Shown in pieces: positions 67-14,384 of a stretch of 51,512 nucleotides of DNA. The notes beneath the pieces are model-generated. The model searched no databases. It saw nothing but the letters and a program-made list of their open reading frames with translations, and was not told the origin of the DNA. The stretch comes from a virus (taxonomy: Duplodnaviria; Caudoviricetes), in IMG/VR virus record IMGVR_UViG_3300006918_000003, positions 1 through 51,512 of that record. One strand, 5' to 3'. Within the stretch, counting starts at the first letter, position 1. Every line of letters begins with the position of its first letter. Made by a program: the position numbers and the translations under genes.

Positions 67-684
67 ATGGCTACTAAAGACAAAACTGTTGAGGTCAAAG
101 GCGTAACGATCATTGCCGATAAAGTATTTGACGCCACGTTGAAAAGGATCAGCAAGAACGCAGAGGATTTGTCGCAAGACTTGCATATTGCTGGTCTCTA
201 TTGCATCAATCAAGCCAATCAATTCAACAATGCTGATAAAGCGCAACGTTTAATTGAGGCGATTGGTAACAAACAAGATATTCGCCGTGTAGCAAGATGG
301 ATGCAAACGTTTGGCAAAATCGGCGTGAAGAATAATCTTCTTGTCTTTAAGAAGAGGAAAGACATTACGCCAGCCAACGCGGATGGATGGTTGAAAAAGG
401 CAGATGCTACTCCCTATTGGGAATTGACACCACAGCCTAAGTTAGAAGTAACATTTGACTATCTGGCAATGCTGAATTCCATTCTGAATAGGGCAGCTAA
501 CAAGCCCAAATTGGAAGAGGAAGGGAAGACGGTTCATGAAAAAAATGTAGCGGTATTGGAGGAAATCAAGGGAATTATTCTTGCCCACACTCCAAAAGAG
601 GATCAAGACGAGATAAAGGAAAAAGCCGCGAACATTGCAAATCGCACCAAGTCTTTCACTGAACCGGCGGCAATGCGTCAATAA
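67..684 (+). CDS. Early hypothetical protein (205 aa), first gene of the early arm
   Basis: Long ORF with strong RBS (TAAGGAG, 52-58). It loosely resembles conserved early proteins of podoviruses; function unknown. Confidence 0.75.
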   Translation: MATKDKTVEVKGVTIIADKVFDATLKRISKNAEDLSQDLHIAGLYCINQANQFNNADKAQRLIEAIGNKQDIRRVARWMQTFGKIGVKNNLLVFKKRKDITPANADGWLKKADATPYWELTPQPKLEVTFDYLAMLNSILNRAANKPKLEEEGKTVHEKNVAVLEEIKGIILAHTPKEDQDEIKEKAANIANRTKSFTEPAAMRQ

Positions 685-689
685 TCCGG

Positions 690-742
690 TAAGAGTCAAT
701 ACAATAGGGATTCGTAAGAGTCCCTATTAATATGGATTCTTT
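690..742 (+). promoter_or_regulatory. Long hairpin, putative RNase III processing site
   Basis: Inner stem AATAGGGATTC-GTAA-GAGTCCCTATT (one G-U pair, GNRA loop), extended by AAGAGTCAATA/TATGGATTCTT. Intergenic, with no clear U-tract after the inner stem. Confidence 0.6.
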
Positions 743-766
743 AACTAGTAATAAGGAGTTTACTCT

Positions 767-850
767 ATGCTTGAAATTATTCTTATTGGTTTTTCTGGTT
801 TTATACTGGTAGTTATATTCATTATGTTAGTGGATATATTATCCAAGTAA
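767..850 (+). CDS. 27-aa single-pass membrane peptide (not in ORF track)
   Basis: AAGGAG RBS at 753-758; translates MLEIILIGFSGFILVVIFIMLVDILSK. Confidence 0.65.
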   Translation: MLEIILIGFSGFILVVIFIMLVDILSK

Positions 851-875
851 GAGTTTTTTAATAGAGGAGTACAGG

Positions 876-1232
876 ATGGTTATAAAGGTCGGTCAGACGT
901 GGAAGCATAAGACGCTCAACAGATATATTGAAATTGTGGACGGGGGAAATCTCTTTTACTTTGATGGAAAAGTAGAGAATAAATTCCTTATAAAATATAA
1001 TGGTATGTTGCATACTGTTAAATATAATCTAATCGAAAACAATTTCCTCTTATTTCAAGAAATGAAAATATCTGCGGGTGTTAAAAAGCATGGGGATACA
1101 TGGGCAGCAGCAGTGTATCCAACCTTAAACTTATTCTTTCAACATATTGAAACCGCACAGCGAGATTATGAAATTATGATTAATCATGGTAAGTGGAAGA
1201 AATGGCTGAAGGAAAAAAATTATAGGAGATAA
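876..1232 (+). CDS. Hypothetical early protein
   Basis: GAGGAG RBS; N-terminal VGQTWKHK motif suggests a small beta-barrel. Confidence 0.7.
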   Translation: MVIKVGQTWKHKTLNRYIEIVDGGNLFYFDGKVENKFLIKYNGMLHTVKYNLIENNFLLFQEMKISAGVKKHGDTWAAAVYPTLNLFFQHIETAQRDYEIMINHGKWKKWLKEKNYRR

Positions 1233-1234
1233 TC

Positions 1235-1450
1235 ATGGCAACAATGGCAGCTAAGGGCCAAATATGGAAATCTTCTCATGGTGTTCCATATGAGGTAAAG
1301 ATATTGGATGTAAACGACGAACATCAAACCATAAAAATTCAATACATCCTTGAAAAAAGGAATCCATGCCTGACAATTTATCTTGATGTTTTTTATGGTT
1401 TTTTTGAATATGTAAAAGACGAAGACAAACCCACTGACGAGCCTCAATAA
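1235..1450 (+). CDS. Hypothetical early protein; 3' end overlaps the hammerhead ribozyme
   Basis: AGGAG RBS; KGQIWKS motif; the stop codon lies in the ribozyme stem II loop. Confidence 0.7.
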   Translation: MATMAAKGQIWKSSHGVPYEVKILDVNDEHQTIKIQYILEKRNPCLTIYLDVFYGFFEYVKDEDKPTDEPQ

Positions 1451-1500
1451 GAGGCGAAACGGCATAACTTGGCGGGTTATGCTGTATGGGTTATTTTATT
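1428..1500 (+). ncRNA. Hammerhead ribozyme, type I
   Basis: Stem I AACCCA(1428-33)/TGGGTT(1487-92); core CTGACGA(1434-40); stem II GCCTC-AATAA-GAGGC(1441-55); GAAA(1456-59); stem III ACGGCATAAC/GTTATGCTGT; cleavage triplet GTA(1484-86). Loop II AATAA is complementary to TTATT(1496-1500). Confidence 0.92.
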
Positions 1501-1525
1501 TAATATTTATTCGGAGCGAATAAAA

Positions 1526-1744
1526 ATGTGTAAAAAAGTATTTGTGCAACATGAGCCACGTTATGACAGAAATAATGACGTTATTGGAGTCTACAAACGT
1601 AGACATGGGCACGTCATACAGGATGTAACACAAGAATATATTCATCGTGATTCTTTCGGACGCCATGTAATCCGCACATCTTCTGGTGATACATGGTCGG
1701 TCATGCCCGTGCACAATGATAAATACCAGTTTGTAACTGTTTAA
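1526..1744 (+). CDS. Hypothetical early protein
   Basis: ATG 1526 with upstream GGAG is preferred; the ORF-track TTG start at 1469 falls inside the ribozyme. Confidence 0.65.
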   Translation: MCKKVFVQHEPRYDRNNDVIGVYKRRHGHVIQDVTQEYIHRDSFGRHVIRTSSGDTWSVMPVHNDKYQFVTV

Positions 1745-1768
1745 TAATCTGAACAGGGACAAATTTCA

Positions 1769-1930
1769 ATGGCACCTCAAGACAAAAAGAATACCGATTC
1801 AGTATTGGAAACAATTTCTATACTTGTACATTCGTCTACATTGACGAATCAGTACAAACTAAAAAGAATAAAAGAAATTGTTGGAACAACAAAGGTAAGA
1901 GTCTTTAACAAACAAGAAAAAGTATCTTAA
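1769..1930 (+). CDS. 53-aa hypothetical protein (not in ORF track)
   Basis: Open frame MAPQDKKNTDSVLETISILVHSS...EKVS fills the gap between neighbours; AGGGA upstream. Confidence 0.5.
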   Translation: MAPQDKKNTDSVLETISILVHSSTLTNQYKLKRIKEIVGTTKVRVFNKQEKVS

Positions 1931-1945
1931 CAAAGGGAGTTGTAA

Positions 1946-2158
1946 ATGTTTCACGCATTTGTTTTCCATCAAGACCCCACTAGCAAAAAATATGTGGCAC
2001 GGAGAACTGGCGCGTCAACACAAGACCTTTCAACTGCAATTAGAATGGTCGAACGTGCCAAGAAAGAGGGATATGTTATTCTCTTAGGCCGAAAGAGACC
2101 TGTATGGAATAATGTAGAAAGAACAACCAAGCAACAATCAGCATTAAGTAATAGATAA
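1946..2158 (+). CDS. Hypothetical early protein
   Basis: GGGAG RBS; 70-aa ORF. Confidence 0.65.
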   Translation: MFHAFVFHQDPTSKKYVARRTGASTQDLSTAIRMVERAKKEGYVILLGRKRPVWNNVERTTKQQSALSNR

Positions 2159-2167
2159 CTCTAACTG

Positions 2168-2239
2168 TTAGTAATATAGAGTTATCAACAAGCATATTAG
2201 AAATAGTATGCTTGCTGGCTAATTTTGGCCTATTACTAA
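2168..2239 (+). promoter_or_regulatory. Long hairpin, putative RNase III processing site
   Basis: Inner stem CAAGCATATT/AGTATGCTTG, middle AGAGTTATCA/TGGCTAATTTT, outer TTAGTAATA/TATTACTAA; intergenic. Confidence 0.55.
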
Positions 2240-2251
2240 TAAGGTTTTAAA

Positions 2252-2437
2252 ATGAAAGTGTTACAAGTCAAGGGAACAAATCTCATTGATGTTTTTATTG
2301 GAGAGGGTTGGTACGGGCACAGCCGTTACCGGAAAGTGGTAAGCAAGGTAACAAAGAAGATCATCTATGTTTATGTTAGTGGTACAAAACTAAACATGTT
2401 TCAATTGAAAGAACTGTACACGAAGGTTAAGAAATGA
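2252..2437 (+). CDS. Hypothetical protein
   Basis: TAAGG RBS; 61-aa ORF coupled to the next gene by ATGA overlap. Confidence 0.65.
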   Translation: MKVLQVKGTNLIDVFIGEGWYGHSRYRKVVSKVTKKIIYVYVSGTKLNMFQLKELYTKVKK

Positions 2438-2649
2438 GAGTAGATTTACCTTTGCCCCCTAAGCCTACCCATTTTATGATTGGAAAGGTTTATCGGCACC
2501 GTGTTTCACATAGAGTTTATCTTCGTACAAATGATGGTAGTCTCGTTGACCTTGAGACAGGGTATATATTCATTTGTTCTACATCAGATCACAATATGGA
2601 TAATTATGAAGATGTAACAGATCAAGTAGTATTGACCAATTCAAAATAA
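2434..2649 (+). CDS. Hypothetical protein, apparent paralogue of 3280-3525
   Basis: Shares GxVY...Y...G...(E/K)DVT pattern with 3280-3525. Confidence 0.65.
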   Translation: MRVDLPLPPKPTHFMIGKVYRHRVSHRVYLRTNDGSLVDLETGYIFICSTSDHNMDNYEDVTDQVVLTNSK

Positions 2650-2656
2650 GGATAAC

Positions 2657-3283
2657 ATGAAACACAATCCATATGAGTTTTATGACTCATCATGTACTGA
2701 TCGCGGATTTGATGATTATCTCCTATTAGGCGGTGGTACGGATATAAATCCTGCCATCTATGGAGAGAAAGATCATGGATATTGCCAACACCCGCACAAG
2801 ACCCGCGACACAGTCAATATAAAAATGATTAATAAATACGTAGAGATGGGGAAACCTATCTTTGGTATTTGTCGTGGGTTTCAACTGCTTGATGCTGTTT
2901 TTGGCGGTAAGTTGATTCAGCATACAGTCGGTCATACGTCATATGCAAAGGTGTATGTAATTAATGATGAATCTGAACCAATTCCATTTGGTCATCCAGA
3001 AGTATTTATGTCATATGATAATTGTCGTAGTTGCCATCATCAAATGGTGGACTTAGATCATACCAACGGGAAGTTACTTGGTTGGTCTAAATATGAGGTT
3101 TTGTGCTCATTACCGGATGGTGGGGTTGAAGGGAGAAATATTGTCCCTCAAATACTTTATTGGCCTGACAAGAAAGCCCTTGCCGTCCAGTTTCATCCTG
3201 AGTGGCATAAAAAAGATCACCCCATGAATGAACATCTTCGTGGCCTCCTTAAAAACCTTCTTGGATTGGAGAATGTTCTATGA
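2657..3283 (+). CDS. Class I glutamine amidotransferase-like protein (peptidase C26 / gamma-glutamyl hydrolase type)
   Basis: LLGGGTDINP, GICRGFQ nucleophile elbow and QFHPE give the Cys-His-Glu triad. Confidence 0.9.
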   Translation: MKHNPYEFYDSSCTDRGFDDYLLLGGGTDINPAIYGEKDHGYCQHPHKTRDTVNIKMINKYVEMGKPIFGICRGFQLLDAVFGGKLIQHTVGHTSYAKVYVINDESEPIPFGHPEVFMSYDNCRSCHHQMVDLDHTNGKLLGWSKYEVLCSLPDGGVEGRNIVPQILYWPDKKALAVQFHPEWHKKDHPMNEHLRGLLKNLLGLENVL

Positions 3284-3525
3284 AAGTTAAGATAGTAGAT
3301 AAACCAAAAAACTCTCATGTTAACCCCACATTACTAATGGGACATGTTTATCAAAATCTCGATAGCAAAGAATTTTATTTTTCGGGATGTACCTCACATG
3401 GTTTGGTTAAGCATATCGTTTTGTTTCAAATATCCAGCGGCACAAGATGGAACGATGAGGGTGGATTTGGGAACGGTAGGTTCAAAGATGTAACTAGCGA
3501 TGCAACTTTTGTGGTGGAAGTGTAA
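3280..3525 (+). CDS. Hypothetical protein, apparent paralogue of 2434-2649
   Basis: ATGA overlap with upstream gene; GHVYQ...KDVT. Confidence 0.65.
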   Translation: MKVKIVDKPKNSHVNPTLLMGHVYQNLDSKEFYFSGCTSHGLVKHIVLFQISSGTRWNDEGGFGNGRFKDVTSDATFVVEV

Positions 3526-3529
3526 AAAC

Positions 3530-4456
3530 ATGGCACAAATGATTTCAATTGGTACAGATGCAGAAATATTTGCAGTAAATAATATTGGCCGTGCCATCGC
3601 CCTTTGTGGAAAGATTGGTGGCACTAAAGAACAACCCTTGCAAATCAAGGGACTTCCTCAAGGTTTCTGTGTACAGGAAGATAATGTCTCTGTTGAATTC
3701 AATATTCCTCCAGCGGGGAGTCTAATTGACTGGAATAGATACATCAGGGATGCATTAAGGGAAGTAAGTGTCATGTTGCATAGCATGAGGCTTTATTTCT
3801 CAAAGGATGCTGCTATTTCCTTTGGAAAGGATCAGCTTCTACATCCCAATGCATTAGTCTTTGGCTGTGAGCCTGATTACAATGCATGGACAAAGATGGA
3901 AAATGAAAAGCCTCAATGTGATGATCCCACATTACGCACAGCCGGTGGTCATATTCATGTGGGTACACGGGGTAACATGATTCAATGCGTGAACATGATG
4001 GATTTTTATCTTGGAGTTCCGTCGGTCATCCTCGATAACTCTCCCACAAGTGTCCGCCGTCGTAAACTGTACGGTAAAGCAGGGGCCATGAGGCCAAAAC
4101 CTTATGGCTTTGAGTATAGGGTTCTCAGTAATTTCTGGATTTTTACTGAAGAGTTGCGTAAGTGGGTTTATGACAATACAGCCCTTGCAATTGGGAGTGA
4201 GGAGGCCAAACTCTCTGCTACGTTGGCCGCAAAGATACAGCAATGTATTAATGAGGGCGATGTTAATTTAGCTAAGGATATTGTAGCTAAAAATCATATC
4301 CCAATGCCAAATGATGTAGCGAAAAAGCTGGCTGCCCCCAGTTGGGAAAAACATGCAGCTAAGGTAATGTCAACTGGTGCTGGATTCAATATTGATCCTA
4401 TGGACTTGCAAGCATTTCTTACTGGAATAGGTAATCATGACACAAACGGTGCTTGA
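3530..4456 (+). CDS. phiEco32-like COOH.NH2 ligase type 2
   Basis: IGTDAEIF, QEDNVSVEFNIPPA, FGCEPDYNAW, RTAGGHIHVG, LYGKAGAMRPKPYGFEYRVLSNFW. ATG 3530 preferred over 3500. Confidence 0.88.
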   Translation: MAQMISIGTDAEIFAVNNIGRAIALCGKIGGTKEQPLQIKGLPQGFCVQEDNVSVEFNIPPAGSLIDWNRYIRDALREVSVMLHSMRLYFSKDAAISFGKDQLLHPNALVFGCEPDYNAWTKMENEKPQCDDPTLRTAGGHIHVGTRGNMIQCVNMMDFYLGVPSVILDNSPTSVRRRKLYGKAGAMRPKPYGFEYRVLSNFWIFTEELRKWVYDNTALAIGSEEAKLSATLAAKIQQCINEGDVNLAKDIVAKNHIPMPNDVAKKLAAPSWEKHAAKVMSTGAGFNIDPMDLQAFLTGIGNHDTNGA

Positions 4457-5000
4457 TTCATTAGCAGAAACCCTTCATTTAAATCACCCTGCCTTAAGTA
4501 CTCAATTTAAATTAGGTGAATGTCGTCACAAGTTGGAAGGAACATTCATCTTCTTTGACAAAGAACTTATTCAGGTTGTAACCTTGAATAATAATGGGCT
4601 TGAGTTTACAAAAGAAGGGGACAATTCATCTGGTTTCATAGGATTGGGTATTAGGCTTCCACAAGGAAGTAAATTCTCCCTCTTTAATATGGATTCAGGA
4701 GTATATCGATTCAATGGTGTCCCAATCTGCTTCACACGCAGGGCCAAGAAGCAATATAAGAAATCCTTCTATCCTGAAGCATACAATATAACCTCACCTA
4801 GTGGGGATTGGGGTGAGAATACACATTTGAATTTCTATCAACTCCCTAAAATGCAAGAACTCACTTTCTATAGATATGGTGACTCTATCTATTACAGGAG
4901 TTTTTGTATTGCAGATGTTTTTAAGGGGAAGTTAAGAGTAGCAGGGGCATTTAAAAATGAGATTGAGAACGCAATAAGATATGGAATCATTACCATTTAG
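4437..5000 (+). CDS. Hypothetical protein within the ligase cluster
   Basis: 187-aa ORF overlapping both neighbours. Confidence 0.7.
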   Translation: MTQTVLDSLAETLHLNHPALSTQFKLGECRHKLEGTFIFFDKELIQVVTLNNNGLEFTKEGDNSSGFIGLGIRLPQGSKFSLFNMDSGVYRFNGVPICFTRRAKKQYKKSFYPEAYNITSPSGDWGENTHLNFYQLPKMQELTFYRYGDSIYYRSFCIADVFKGKLRVAGAFKNEIENAIRYGIITI

Positions 5001-5841
5001 TAATCGTGTTCTATACCCAAAACTCAAGACTTATGATGGGTTAATGGGTAAAATAAAACTTGCCTCTCCTTTCATTTACCTCGGAGTAGAGGTAGAGGCA
5101 GAGAATGTTAGTCATTTTTACAGTCAATACAGCATCCCCGGATCATGGAGGATAGTAGAGGACGGCTCATTAAAGGTTCATGGATCAGAGTATGTAACTG
5201 TCCCTATTAAATTTAAATATATTGAAATGGAATTGCGTAGATTGTTTGATGCCATACCAAAGGCAGAATTCTCTCCACGTACTTCAATTCATATCCATGT
5301 TAATTCTAGGGACTTCACAGATCAAGAATTATTCAGATTCTTAGTGTTATATCTGATCTTTGAAAGAAATCTGTATAAATTTGCAGGGGATAGATGGTTA
5401 AATAACTTCTGTGTTCCAATCCATAGCTCACCGGGAAATATAGGGACAATACTAAGGCATTGTCATGGAAATGTTCTCTCTAATATTTCTTGGTGCAAAT
5501 ACTATGGCCTTAATCTTCTTCCTTTATTGGGGGAAGAGGGATCAAGTTGCCGGTATGGTACGATTGAGTTCCGTCATATGATAGGGAATAATGACGTAGA
5601 GTACATTATGAATTGGTGTAACCTTATCCTTAGCCTTAAGCTGGCGGCTAAGAGTTGTACCAATGAGTTCTTAATGTCTTCATTATTAATGAATGAAACT
5701 ACGTCACTAGCCTTCATTGACTTGATATTTAAAGACTGGGCTACTCATATAGCATCGATGCCTATGGCATCACAGATGATAGAAGAGTCGTCTTTAGCAA
5801 CTAAGATTTATTTGGCTCAAGCAGGAATACTAAGTAATTAA
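4981..5841 (+). CDS. Putative amidoligase (COOH-NH2 ligase, Amidoligase_2-like)
   Basis: GVEVE, EDGSL, RTSIHIHVN, KYYGLNL and GTIEFRH motifs. Confidence 0.85.
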   Translation: MESLPFSNRVLYPKLKTYDGLMGKIKLASPFIYLGVEVEAENVSHFYSQYSIPGSWRIVEDGSLKVHGSEYVTVPIKFKYIEMELRRLFDAIPKAEFSPRTSIHIHVNSRDFTDQELFRFLVLYLIFERNLYKFAGDRWLNNFCVPIHSSPGNIGTILRHCHGNVLSNISWCKYYGLNLLPLLGEEGSSCRYGTIEFRHMIGNNDVEYIMNWCNLILSLKLAAKSCTNEFLMSSLLMNETTSLAFIDLIFKDWATHIASMPMASQMIEESSLATKIYLAQAGILSN

Positions 5842-5857
5842 GGAATAAAAATATAAA

Positions 5858-7006
5858 ATGTGTGGAATCGTTGGTGTTATCTCGAAGCGTAAGAATGGTT
5901 TGTTCCATTCAGATATTGACATCTTTACTGATCTATTGTTTGCCGATCAACTCCGTGGTGCGCATGGGACAGGGATGTTTTATGATGTAGATGGAGTCGG
6001 TCATGCTTTTAAAGGGCCGATGCCTTCTAGTTCATTCCTTCGGAGTGAGAAGATTGGGCCTGTTTTTAATACAGTGGTACAAAAGTCTAATTTCCTTATT
6101 GGACATAACCGCCACGCAACTAAAGGGGGTGTTAGTTTTGATAGTACACACCCTTTTATTGAAGGTGAAACTGTACTAATTCACAATGGGACTCTACCAA
6201 GCCATAAGCATATAAAAGATGTTGAGGTGGATAGTCATGCCATCTGCCATTCAATCAATGAGATTGGTCACATTGAAACCCTGAAGAAGATTGATGGGGC
6301 CTTCGCATTGGTATGGTTTGATGGAAACACAAAGAAACTCCACTTCATCCGTAATACTGAAAGGCCATTACATATAGTTGAAACCGATGACTTAATTGTA
6401 ATGTCCTCTGAAGCAGGGCTGGTTGAGTGGATATTGAAGAGGAAACTAGTAAATAAGGTGCAACCTACTGTTTCCTGTGAAGTGGGTCATCTTTATACCT
6501 ATGATATCCATACACATCTTCTTTCGAATGAAAAGGTAGAGATTAAGCCCAAGTCTTATACGGGTGGGAAATTTTATGGGGCCAATTGGGATGCATACTT
6601 TCCCGCTGATTCCACAAAGAAAAGGCCTACTACCTATACCCCACCACCTGTTAATAATACTAGGTATCATAGTTCTTATTTTGTTGATGCAAGGGTAGGG
6701 GATACGATTATATTCTCTCCTGTTGATCTTCAACAGAATGGGAAGACATGGGTATTGAGTGGTTTGGGGGATACATTGATCTATAACACTGTGCATGTTG
6801 AACAGATTCAGAAGGAAGTTCAATTGACAGTTAGGTTCTTTAACCCACACGAAGAGCAATTGCGTAATTTATTGGACTATGCCCAATGCCGTGCTCAGAT
6901 TATCCAAATAGTATGGAAGGGTAATAATAAATCTGTAGTAGTTAAAGATGTTCAGCCTGTAATTGAGGGACTTCCAGTACCGACGCCGGTGGCAACTGTT
7001 CAATGA
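5858..7006 (+). CDS. Class II (Ntn) glutamine amidotransferase with C-terminal extension
   Basis: N-terminal MCGIVG nucleophile; RG, GHNRHATKG, HPF, HNG, VDS, DGAFALVW and RNTERPL motifs. Confidence 0.92.
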   Translation: MCGIVGVISKRKNGLFHSDIDIFTDLLFADQLRGAHGTGMFYDVDGVGHAFKGPMPSSSFLRSEKIGPVFNTVVQKSNFLIGHNRHATKGGVSFDSTHPFIEGETVLIHNGTLPSHKHIKDVEVDSHAICHSINEIGHIETLKKIDGAFALVWFDGNTKKLHFIRNTERPLHIVETDDLIVMSSEAGLVEWILKRKLVNKVQPTVSCEVGHLYTYDIHTHLLSNEKVEIKPKSYTGGKFYGANWDAYFPADSTKKRPTTYTPPPVNNTRYHSSYFVDARVGDTIIFSPVDLQQNGKTWVLSGLGDTLIYNTVHVEQIQKEVQLTVRFFNPHEEQLRNLLDYAQCRAQIIQIVWKGNNKSVVVKDVQPVIEGLPVPTPVATVQ

Positions 7007-7728
7007 AAACAATAATTGTATCTCCATTATGTACCGCAGATTCCGCTAAAGACCTAGCCAATAGGTTAGGTATCCAGTGGGTAGAAAAAGCAGATAATAT
7101 AACATGGGGTGACACCTTCCGAGTCATTAATTGGGGGTGTTCTAGACTAAAAGCTGAGAACATTATCCTTAATGATCCCCGTGCAGTTCGCCGAAGTTTG
7201 AATAAGTTACGTACATTTGAACTACTTTCCGATAAAGTTAAGATGCCCACCATGACTCTTGATAAGGAAGAAGCAAAACAATGGGCAATGGATGGACGAA
7301 AGGTGGTAGTTCGTAATAGAGTTAAGGGATGCAAGAGTCAAGGGATTACTATAACTAAGGATACCCATGACATAGCCATTCTCCCTGCTAAATTTTATAC
7401 TCGATTTATTGCAAATTGTACTGAATATCGGGTAAATGTTTATAAGGGTAAGGTACTCACTGTTTATCGTAAGGAACCTTGTGGTAATGATTTTCGATTC
7501 AAGATTCAGCTTGGGCCTCTCATTGAAGCCACATATGATGAGACTTTAAAGGACTTCATCAATAATGTGGATGAGCATATCAAGTTGGATACGTATGGAT
7601 TGGATATGCTTCATACCCCTAAAGGAAAATGGTTTCTATTGGAAGTGAATTCCGCCCCAATATTGTTCCCAATAACATATAAGAGATTAGCTAAAGCAAT
7701 CAAACAGGATTTATTTGAAAATGAGTGA
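7003..7728 (+). CDS. ATP-grasp ligase (RimK-like)
   Basis: NKLRTF, EYRVNV, YGLDML and LLEVNSAP motifs. Confidence 0.85.
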   Translation: MKTIIVSPLCTADSAKDLANRLGIQWVEKADNITWGDTFRVINWGCSRLKAENIILNDPRAVRRSLNKLRTFELLSDKVKMPTMTLDKEEAKQWAMDGRKVVVRNRVKGCKSQGITITKDTHDIAILPAKFYTRFIANCTEYRVNVYKGKVLTVYRKEPCGNDFRFKIQLGPLIEATYDETLKDFINNVDEHIKLDTYGLDMLHTPKGKWFLLEVNSAPILFPITYKRLAKAIKQDLFENE

Positions 7729-8434
7729 TGTTGTCAAACTAGGTACATTTAAAAATGAATATGAATTAAACGAGATTTTCCAATCAGTTGCTATTCAATT
7801 TGCCTTCGTCGATGATAAGTATGAGCAAATACATCAACCGGGAAAATGTCGTGACTTTCTTGGTGATATTCCTTGGTCACGTTATACTGGTAAAAAAGTC
7901 TCTATTTATGGGTTACAGTATGACTATTCTAAGAATCCATATAACACCGAGTTAGTCAGACTCTCATTGAAGTTTCCAAATAAGGGGACACAAGAAAACT
8001 TTATCAAGCATTTTTCTTATCTGACTGATAGGGAAAGGGCATATAATATTCCCGAATCTAAATGGTTCTATACGGATCAAGAGAATACTCTCATAGTTGA
8101 GGGAGACAAGTGCTGGCAAGGGTGTACATGGAAGATTAGCCTTTATACTTTCTATCTAAAGGTTATGTCCTACGATGACGTTGAGAATCTTCAAAGGCCT
8201 GAGTTGTCTTATAAAGAAAAGCTGACACCTGAAGCTGAATCAAAGCTCTTAGCAGACGTAACATCTGATTTTAATCCGATGGCAGAACATCTCTCAACAA
8301 ATCATAATAGTTCTGGATTTGTATCCACCCTTGATTGTTATATACATCGAAAGATGTATGCAACACAGGGTTATGATAAACACTACCCTACGGCGTGGGC
8401 TGTTGCTAAAAGGGTATTTGGAGATATGTGGTGA
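7715..8434 (+). CDS. Hypothetical protein at the end of the ligase cluster
   Basis: 239-aa ORF; ATG at 7721 is a possible start. Confidence 0.7.
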   Translation: MKMSDVVKLGTFKNEYELNEIFQSVAIQFAFVDDKYEQIHQPGKCRDFLGDIPWSRYTGKKVSIYGLQYDYSKNPYNTELVRLSLKFPNKGTQENFIKHFSYLTDRERAYNIPESKWFYTDQENTLIVEGDKCWQGCTWKISLYTFYLKVMSYDDVENLQRPELSYKEKLTPEAESKLLADVTSDFNPMAEHLSTNHNSSGFVSTLDCYIHRKMYATQGYDKHYPTAWAVAKRVFGDMW

Positions 8435-13468: not shown

Positions 13469-13662
13469 TGAAATTTGATTGTGGTGAAACAAGGGAAGAA
13501 AGGATACTACGGCTTTCTAATTGGCATAAAAGGTTTACTTTCTTTCCAACAAAGATAGCAAACCATGATTGCAGATGGTTAGAATGGATTGAGAGAAAGG
13601 GGGAGATTAATTCTTCTTATGATGGCCCCTATTGGGTATGGGAATATAGGGCCATTAAATGA
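13468..13662 (+). CDS. Hypothetical protein
   Basis: 64-aa Trp-rich ORF, translationally coupled. Confidence 0.6.
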   Translation: MKFDCGETREERILRLSNWHKRFTFFPTKIANHDCRWLEWIERKGEINSSYDGPYWVWEYRAIK

Positions 13663-14384
13663 GAATAAATGTATTAGATCATGGATTTGTTAAGCTTCGT
13701 AATATCTCCGGCCCTACTCGACGTAGAGACGCAGAATATGATGCTTCTGATGTTGATCCAGCAAATGTGGCTAGAAAGTCATTTAATCAGATGGATTCAG
13801 GTAGGACAGATGAAGATGAATTCAGATTAAATAACTATCTGATGAGGAATTGGCATACAACACCATTTGAGCACACCGTTGTATGGCTTGAAATGAAGTT
13901 GCCAATCTTCGTAGCAAGACAATACATTAGACACAGAACATCTTCTGTTGATGAGGTCTCTGCAAGGTATGTACAGTTGCCTTCTGAATGGTATATCCCC
14001 AAACTTGAAAATGTCTTATTTCAATCTAAAGATAAGAAACAAGGGGGAAGGGCAGTTGATCTAAATACAGAAATTGTTGCAGCAAGTCGATTTATAGATA
14101 GTCTAAATGACCAATGTCATGTGAGTTATAAACTCTATTTGGAATCCTTGGCTGATGGGATTGCAATGGAACAAGCCCGTATGCTTCTTCACTTGAACCA
14201 TTACACTCATTGGATTTGGAAGCAAGACCTTCATAATCTTATGAATCTATTAGCACGTAGGATTCATCCCCATGCTCAATATGAATCTAGGGTTTATGCT
14301 CAGGCTATCATTAATCTTCTTACACCCCATATTCCGAATCTAATGGAATTATTCCATAAATATAGGAGGTTCGACGGTGAATGA
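13659..14384 (+). CDS. thyX: FAD-dependent thymidylate synthase
   Basis: VLDHGFVKL, HTTPFEH, PIFVARQ, RHRTSSVDEVSARY (RHR-x7-S-x-R) and HAQYE. Confidence 0.95.
   Translation: MRINVLDHGFVKLRNISGPTRRRDAEYDASDVDPANVARKSFNQMDSGRTDEDEFRLNNYLMRNWHTTPFEHTVVWLEMKLPIFVARQYIRHRTSSVDEVSARYVQLPSEWYIPKLENVLFQSKDKKQGGRAVDLNTEIVAASRFIDSLNDQCHVSYKLYLESLADGIAMEQARMLLHLNHYTHWIWKQDLHNLMNLLARRIHPHAQYESRVYAQAIINLLTPHIPNLMELFHKYRRFDGE

Follow-up and report, generated by a model that had tools for sequence, protein, structure and literature searches.

A type I hammerhead ribozyme, predicted from sequence and fold, at a small-gene junction of a Zobellviridae-like podovirus

Type I hammerhead ribozymes at the gene junctions of phages have been described since 2011 (PMC3088659). 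The available part of that study reports that they flank phage and prophage genes and cleave both in vitro and in E. coli, and the accessible text of a later paper places them beside small non-conserved open reading frames (ORFs) (PMC6155905). According to the accessible sections of PMC13725137, DNA-encoded type I motifs typically have a longer helix III. A processing role, in which neighbouring cistrons are uncoupled, has already been proposed for phage and prophage hammerheads in the available text of PMC3088659 and PMC6765202, and the role of many hammerheads in phage genomes is still called an open question in that of PMC6155905 and PMC6765202.

Here we describe a site of this kind in a complete virus record of IMG/VR. 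The window, that is the whole stretch of DNA that was analysed, comprises the 51,512 bases of this record and has a GC content of 39.5%. The source virus is a Zobellviridae-like podovirus, with a large terminase that is 70% identical to that of the uncultured podovirus MW202697, 66% identical to those of the Methylophilales phages MEP401/402 and approximately 54% identical to those of ICP2- and Lentibacter-type Zobellviridae. A block of genes on the + strand (67-23306) contains small orphan genes and an amidotransferase/amidoligase cluster, along with genes for a helicase, a DNA polymerase and a ribonucleotide reductase and a thymidylate-synthase-like gene. The genes for terminase, portal, capsid and tail form a block on the - strand. 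The hammerhead lies between two small ORFs on the sense strand, close to the left end of the + strand block. Within the same block, positions 2657-8434 and 13659-14384 hold genes for a glutamine amidotransferase, a COOH-NH2 ligase, amidoligases and a GlmS-like aminotransferase, together with the thymidylate-synthase-like gene, a cluster that we take to resemble gene sets that in other phages are tied to hypermodified DNA bases. MW202697, the closest deposited relative, has a tRNA gene in its replication module (L001:5971-6051). A blastn search of positions 1000-2200 against deposited phages gave no match, and a search of viral contigs seeded with the proteins of the two flanking ORFs and of two larger neighbours gave no confirmed relative. 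We consider it probable that 1428-1492 is a genuine type I hammerhead by which a polycistronic mRNA processes itself at a small-gene junction; the catalysis, the chemistry of the ends and the consequences for the mRNA are what we infer from its likeness to described hammerheads.

Architecture and predicted fold of the element

All parts of the element lie on the + strand, in the order 5' strand of stem I, core, stem II hairpin, GAA, stem III hairpin, cleavage site and 3' strand of stem I. The 5' strand of stem I (1428-1433) is predicted to form 6 bp with its 3' strand (1487-1492). The core CUGANGA, which runs from C3 to A9 and has C at N7, occupies 1434-1440 and aligns to the core of the covariance models R1 and R2 described below. 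Stem II (1441-1445 with 1451-1455, 5 bp) has the closing pair G10.1-C11.1 and is capped by a loop II of 5 nt (1446-1450). The conserved G12 A13 A14 (1456-1458) is followed by stem III (1459-1470 with 1474-1485), which starts with A15.1-U16.1 (1459/1485), comprises 12 bp including three G-U pairs and has a 3-nt loop. From the hammerhead consensus, cleavage is predicted at a GUA triplet, between A17 (1486) and U1.1 (1487), and GUA satisfies the NUH rule.

The hammerhead invariants are all present at 1428-1492, namely C3 U4 G5 A6 N7 G8 A9, G12 A13 A14, the pair A15.1-U16.1 and A as H17. None of the core-flanking pairs (1.1-2.1, 10.1-11.1 and 15.1-16.1) is a mispair, the helices measure 6, 5 and 12 bp, and the connectivity is that of type I, with stem I open and stems II and III capped. 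A sequence-only reading of this DNA had proposed a complete type I hammerhead here, with these core elements, these three stems and the GUA triplet. Its placement of each of them was correct, with stem III at 12 bp, and the proposal as a whole was borne out in every feature of sequence and structure that could be tested. Judged by its sequence and modelled structure, 1428-1492 is a type I hammerhead, for which catalysis would be expected.

Both the minimum free energy and the centroid structures obtained with RNAfold are exactly the hammerhead three-way junction, at -28.1 kcal/mol (z = -4.33), and none of 200 shuffles folds as well. The junction is kept in the folds predicted for 150-nt and 321-nt contexts. 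A descriptor composed of the core and the three closing helices, which covers type I only (types II and III were covered at Rfam gathering level, in the window and in L001 and L002), found a single site on the two strands of the 51.5-kb window. Among 1000 dinucleotide-preserving shuffles of the whole window, 24 contained a minimal site with helices of at least 4/3/3 bp and none reached 5/4/4, compared with the observed 6/5/12. The bare core pattern is not rare without its helices (7 matches vs 2.6 expected), and the significance of the site is therefore due to the helices rather than to the core pattern. A chance origin of the hammerhead at 1428-1492 is excluded.

The same fold could mainly serve as a transcription terminator or as an RNA-stabilising 3' structure, with the hammerhead core being incidental. 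A multi-helix structure of -28 kcal/mol that is directly followed by a U-rich tract (1493-1500) is in line with such a function. However, the terminator scan reports none at the site, 7 nt plus stem I lie between the strong stem III hairpin and the U tract, most members of the class described below have no U tract after stem I, and an incidental full core at a three-helix junction is excluded by the shuffles. We regard this explanation as highly improbable.

Outside the hammerhead itself, the 150-nt fold contains an A/U-rich hairpin at 1388-1420, 7 nt 5' of stem I, which is placed like the extra 5' hairpin of RAGATH-1 hammerheads. It is missing from the 321-nt fold and was dropped as a RAGATH-1-like feature.

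A class of phage hammerheads and its distribution

Relatives of the hammerhead were sought with a pattern in which the core and the stem II of the window were fixed and loop II was free, for which approximately 8e-13 matches are expected per base searched. It matched 31 contigs of metagenomes and 9 of viruses. In eight of the nine viral matches, stems I and III close as well, neither of them being constrained by the pattern, and the ninth has a C-A mispair beside the core. In an alignment of 7 distinct sequences, 100% of the cells of 14 pairs are standard pairs and 5 pairs change on both sides, with stem II, as it is fixed by the search pattern, contributing no covariation information. This pairing is equalled by none of 500 shuffles, and shuffled and slid controls lie far below it.

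The covariance model R1 was built from these 7 distinct sequences, one of which is the window. In viral loci it gave 35 matches with E values of no more than 1, of which many were outside its building set, and in the window it gave a single site, at 56.4 bits (next 12.2). For model R2, 19 hammerheads of other contigs were used and the window was left out; in its alignment, which was fitted to the model, pairing holds in 95.5% of the cells, and two-sided changes occur at 10 of 13 pairs. R2 matches the window site over its full model length with 40.3 bits (E ~1e-9; next best place in the window 12.4 bits), a score of imperfect independence because the seeds of R2 were reached via the stem II pattern of the window and via R1, which contains the window. 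As judged from these model scores, the site belongs to the phage type I hammerhead class that R1 and R2 define.

The Rfam hammerhead models, which had been suggested as a check on the sequence-only reading, do not recognize the site at their gathering thresholds, and a gathering-level Rfam scan of the whole 51.5-kb window gave no match of any family. In permissive mode, the best-scoring family is the RAGATH-1 hammerhead (RF03152), with 23.9 bits and an E of 0.048 at a cut-off of 56.3. Hammerhead_1 (RF00163) matches 1428-1478 with 14.9 bits, its gathering cut-off being 34; this 45-position model has a very short stem III and for that reason misaligns stem III of the window. By score thresholds, the site thus falls outside both RF00163 (clan CL00010) and RAGATH-1. 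Rfam release 15 at gathering level also recovers 0 of the 28 R2-detected hammerheads in seven loci (L003, L004, L005, L007, L008, L010 and L025), so that its miss at 1428-1492 is uninformative. A typical class member scores 25.3 and 19.2 bits with the same two families (RAGATH-1 and type I, respectively). The insensitivity of curated type I models to phage sequences leaves an annotation gap in phage genomes.

Within the class, the window is atypical in two respects, both of which count against our main reading. None of the 57 other class members has GUA at the site, 49 of them having GUC, and the hammerhead of the window has a model span of 63 nt compared with a class median of 55, with an unusually long stem III. 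The distribution among related phages also counts against it. Whole-genome scans of MW202697 and MEP401, the two closest deposited genomes, with R1 and R2 detected no hammerhead (best 10.5 bits, filters off), and neither did scans of the whole records of five further Zobellviridae, MEP402, PQ867851, PQ867842, ICP2 and Lentibacter ICBM2. As a positive control, the R1/R2 scan found 1 to 6 copies in each of five hammerhead-bearing records. Since the element is missing from 7 of 7 related phages, it is sporadic in this lineage, and because the flanking genes are orphans as well, the lineage itself yields no evidence of conservation or covariation.

Inactive hammerhead-like RNAs have been reported by Perreault et al. 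in the available part of PMC3088659. The element of the window could be such an inactive or decaying motif, functionless and without useful cleavage in vivo, for example if its stems I and II made no tertiary contact with one another. The absence from all seven relatives, the site triplet and stem III that are atypical for the class, and a candidate pseudoknot that is not significant (see below) are arguments for decay. Set against these, the core is without deviation and has no mispair beside it, the GUA triplet obeys the NUH rule, and all 23 of the 23 helix pairs are intact in a genome of 39.5% GC, where decay would be quick. In addition, a single copy per complete phage genome is not peculiar to the window, as it is also found in G002 and G004. 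We judge decay to be distinctly unlikely, and retain the reading as a genuine hammerhead.

Some contigs of the class carry many copies. The 4.7-kb contig L025 has 11 R2 matches (522-4375, - strand), all on one strand and approximately one per small gene; contig L004 has 7 hammerheads within about 5 kb, and L021 is dense too. This is the known multi-hammerhead, gene-flanking arrangement, here in an unusually dense form.

A tertiary contact is needed for fast hammerhead cleavage at low Mg2+. The sequence-only reading had pointed to an activating pseudoknot of loop II with the sequence just 3' of stem I. A full 5-nt complement of loop II does occur in this tail, with two overlapping candidate partners at 1491-1495 and 1496-1500 (+ strand), but its presence is not significant, as such a complement arises in 51% of shuffles of the A/U-rich tail of the window and also in 17% of genomic 14-mers that are comparably A/T-rich. 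A loop II pseudoknot in the window is therefore plausible but unsupported. For 19 independent class members, we determined the best Watson-Crick run that the loop II region can form with the 14 nt that follow stem I; its mean is 3.58, and it reaches at least 4 in 9 of the 19. The corresponding means are 3.00 for tails of other contigs and 2.87 for shuffled tails, with 0 of 2000 trials of either reaching 3.58, and the 14 nt upstream of the ribozyme have a mean run of 2.74 with loop II. For the class as a whole, complementarity between loop II and the tail exceeds the controls. This agrees with the available text of PMC3088659, in which loop II is reported to have a possible Watson-Crick pseudoknot with the 3' tail in about 40% of representatives.

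Overlap with the upstream gene and predicted cleavage products

The upstream ORF (1235-1450, + strand) encodes an orphan protein of 71 aa and is preceded by a Shine-Dalgarno-like AGGAG (1224-1228). Its codon usage scores 0.446 bits/codon in frame vs -0.66 and -0.77 off frame, the reference being 0.46 +/- 0.15 for 71-codon pieces of the long genes of this phage, and it looks like a real coding sequence. A search against 5.8 billion proteins matched only its own product, and no Pfam or PHROG family was found for it. The last seven codons (1427-1447) and the stop codon (1448-1450) fall within stem I, the core, stem II and loop II, and 23 nt of the hammerhead are coding. The hammerhead is thus overprinted on the end of this gene, as had been proposed, with the stop codon in loop II.

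We located the stop codons of upstream frames in an enlarged set of 79 R2 matches, which correspond to 59 distinct sites. Frames were callable at 44 sites; the remaining 15 comprised 8 without a 60-codon open frame, 4 near a contig end and 3 with ambiguous frames. At 20 of the 44 callable sites the upstream stop is the UGA of the core, at 12 it lies within the 15 nt before C3, at 9 it lies at +11 to +17 from C3, in stem II or loop II, and at 3 the frame runs past the ribozyme. The stop is hence inside the ribozyme or at most 15 nt before it in 41 of 44 callable class members, at positions -15 to +17; that of the window is at +14 from C3. Stops on the core UGA are spread over 13 of 22 contigs, and examples of the class span L003-L011 and L017-L047 (e.g. 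L004:3316-3375, L010:5311-5362 and L021:8033-8094). Of the 19 independent hammerheads analysed first, 11 have the core UGA as the end of their longest upstream open frame, and 7 of the remaining 8 have a frame of 50 codons or more that terminates 7-9 nt before C3. Calling the frame by third-position GC, which was possible for 16, put the stop in the core in 10, shortly before stem I in 5 and deeper in the remaining one. Overlap of the upstream stop with the ribozyme is the rule for this class, and the window shows one of three recurrent configurations.

The reading frame of the window through the core is also used in 8 of the 9 cases with a deeper stop (L018:1099-1194; L019:6622-6674 and 6403-6455; L025:975-1031, 3110-3164, 522-589 and 2786-2832; L044:6835-6889). 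The proteins encoded in this frame, that of the window (1433-1441) and the 8 others, end in [T/P]-D-E followed by 0-3 residues. In this frame, the catalytic core forces the C-terminal tail, which provides a protein-level signature of an embedded hammerhead.

The position of the stop codon could also reflect a translation-gated ribozyme, an idea of the sequence-only reading that is here extended to the class, in which selection places the upstream stop within the ribozyme, ribosomes keep the core unfolded and their traffic times cleavage. The concentration of stops in the ribozyme or up to 15 nt before C3 (41 of 44, including 20 on the core UGA and 9 at +11 to +17) speaks for such gating, as do the 10 core stops among the 16 independent frame calls by third-position GC. 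Frames that enter the core stop on its UGA in 20 of 32 cases, compared with one third expected of random frames, in a sample that includes non-independent paralogues from the same contig. Gating is also physically reasonable: by established footprint geometry, ~1433-1460 would be occupied by a ribosome whose A site holds 1448-1450, which is incompatible with the fold. On the other hand, compaction alone predicts the same layout, because a frame entering the ribozyme terminates at whichever stop codon it meets first, and the core contains one, and the variation of the stop position among three configurations argues against one precise mechanism. Also against gating, no precedent was found: the literature searched, including the main text, as far as accessible, of PMC3088659, PMC6765202, PMC6155905 and PMC13725137, makes no mention of a stop codon inside a hammerhead, a point that may have been published elsewhere, for instance with gene contexts in the supplementary figures of PMC3088659. 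The class-wide overlap fits ribosome gating and plain compaction equally well, and we consider gating unlikely. If it were true, the ribosome would be the switch that licenses cleavage only when upstream translation pauses or ends, and the sequence would be dual coding, with the catalytic core dictating either the C-terminal [T/P]-D-E or the stop itself. Most simply, the 5' half of these hammerheads overlaps the upstream gene because the genomes are compact and the core contains a UGA.

The downstream ORF (1526-1744, + strand) encodes an orphan protein of 72 aa from ATG 1526. It scores 0.319 bits/codon in frame, and a protein-database search matched only its own product. Its open frame (1469-1744) reaches back to a TTG at 1469, which lies in stem III. 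ATG 1526 is preferred as the start because TTG 1469 has no ribosome-binding motif; if the TTG were used, cleavage would cut inside the downstream ORF. The leader of the predicted 3' product is A/U-rich, has a GGAG at 1513-1516 and measures 39 nt (1487-1525), close to the distance of about 40 nt from cut to next gene that had been anticipated. A weak, A/U-rich hairpin of 8 bp at ~1506-1524 has this GGAG in its loop and stem and folds both before and after cleavage, so that no effect of cleavage on the downstream ribosome-binding site is suggested. The other predicted product likewise conforms to expectation: in the fold of 1400-1486, the upstream fragment ends in the stem II and stem III hairpins.

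In most of 19 sites of the class, the next start lies 28-34 nt after the cut when a Shine-Dalgarno motif is required. A cruder measure over 55 sites clusters at 29-35 nt and has a median of 23 nt, compared with 39 nt in the window; this median is distorted by spurious GTG/TTG starts in GC-rich DNA, and the Shine-Dalgarno version, based on 19 sites, is more trustworthy. The window shares the layout of the class, with a hammerhead on the sense strand at a gene junction, a stop codon in the ribozyme and a start codon tens of nucleotides past the cut.

In the reading that we prefer, that of a self-processing polycistronic mRNA, the hammerhead would be transcribed as part of an early polycistronic mRNA and fold into its three-way junction, and the RNA would cut itself constitutively between A1486 and U1487. 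The upstream fragment would retain the complete ORF 1235-1450 with its stop codon and carry the stem II and stem III hairpins and a 2',3'-cyclic phosphate end. The downstream fragment, beginning 39 nt ahead of the next start codon, would have a 5'-OH end and a short A/U-rich leader. The two small cistrons could in this way be uncoupled in stability and translation. The hammerheads of the class would generally fill the whole intergenic space, with their 5' half laid over the end of the upstream gene.

Relation to known hammerheads

The window provides a clean, single-copy hammerhead in a complete podovirus genome of 51.5 kb whose sequenced relatives are without it. Comparison with its class exposes a recurrent architecture in which the upstream stop lies in the ribozyme (on the core UGA at 20 of 44 sites) and the next start follows ~30-40 nt past the cut. 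This architecture, the C-terminal signature and the Rfam gap together make the idea of ribosome-gated self-cleavage directly testable.

Other described hammerheads resemble the window in part. RAGATH-1 (RF03152) aligns with it in the core, stem I and stem III, but in its consensus stem II is vestigial and there is an additional 5' hairpin, which aligns to the window with non-standard pairs, whereas the window has a regular 5-bp stem II. Hammerhead_1 (RF00163) has the same type I topology, and its core and stem II align. The HHphage hammerhead of haloviruses HF1/HF2, as described in the available text of PMC3088659, is likewise located in an early region upstream of a start codon, and a mapped transcript 5' end lies within 3 nt of its cleavage site. 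It differs from the window in belonging to an archaeal virus, in its variant core, in its shorter distance to the start (13 nt, compared with 39 nt), and in its position at the head of a transcript instead of between ORFs. Type I ribozymes of RNA genomes with eukaryotic hosts also lie directly before ORFs, and one of them takes up the whole of a 66-nt intergenic region, its cut lying 7 nt ahead of the next start. For these ribozymes an IRES-like translational role has been proposed and no loop-loop contacts have been seen, which is unlike the setting of the window.

The closest likeness is to the type I hammerheads of bacteria, prophages and phages as the available part of PMC3088659 describes them, with which the window shares the core, the type I topology, a stem II of full length that is closed by a G-C pair, a helix III that is long and a sense-strand site between small non-conserved phage genes. 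It differs from them in having GUA instead of GUC, in its stem III of 12 bp, in its A/U-rich setting and in its single copy. By comparison with the accessible text of PMC13725137 and PMC3088659, the window site belongs with those type I hammerheads encoded in bacterial and phage DNA in which helix III is longer.
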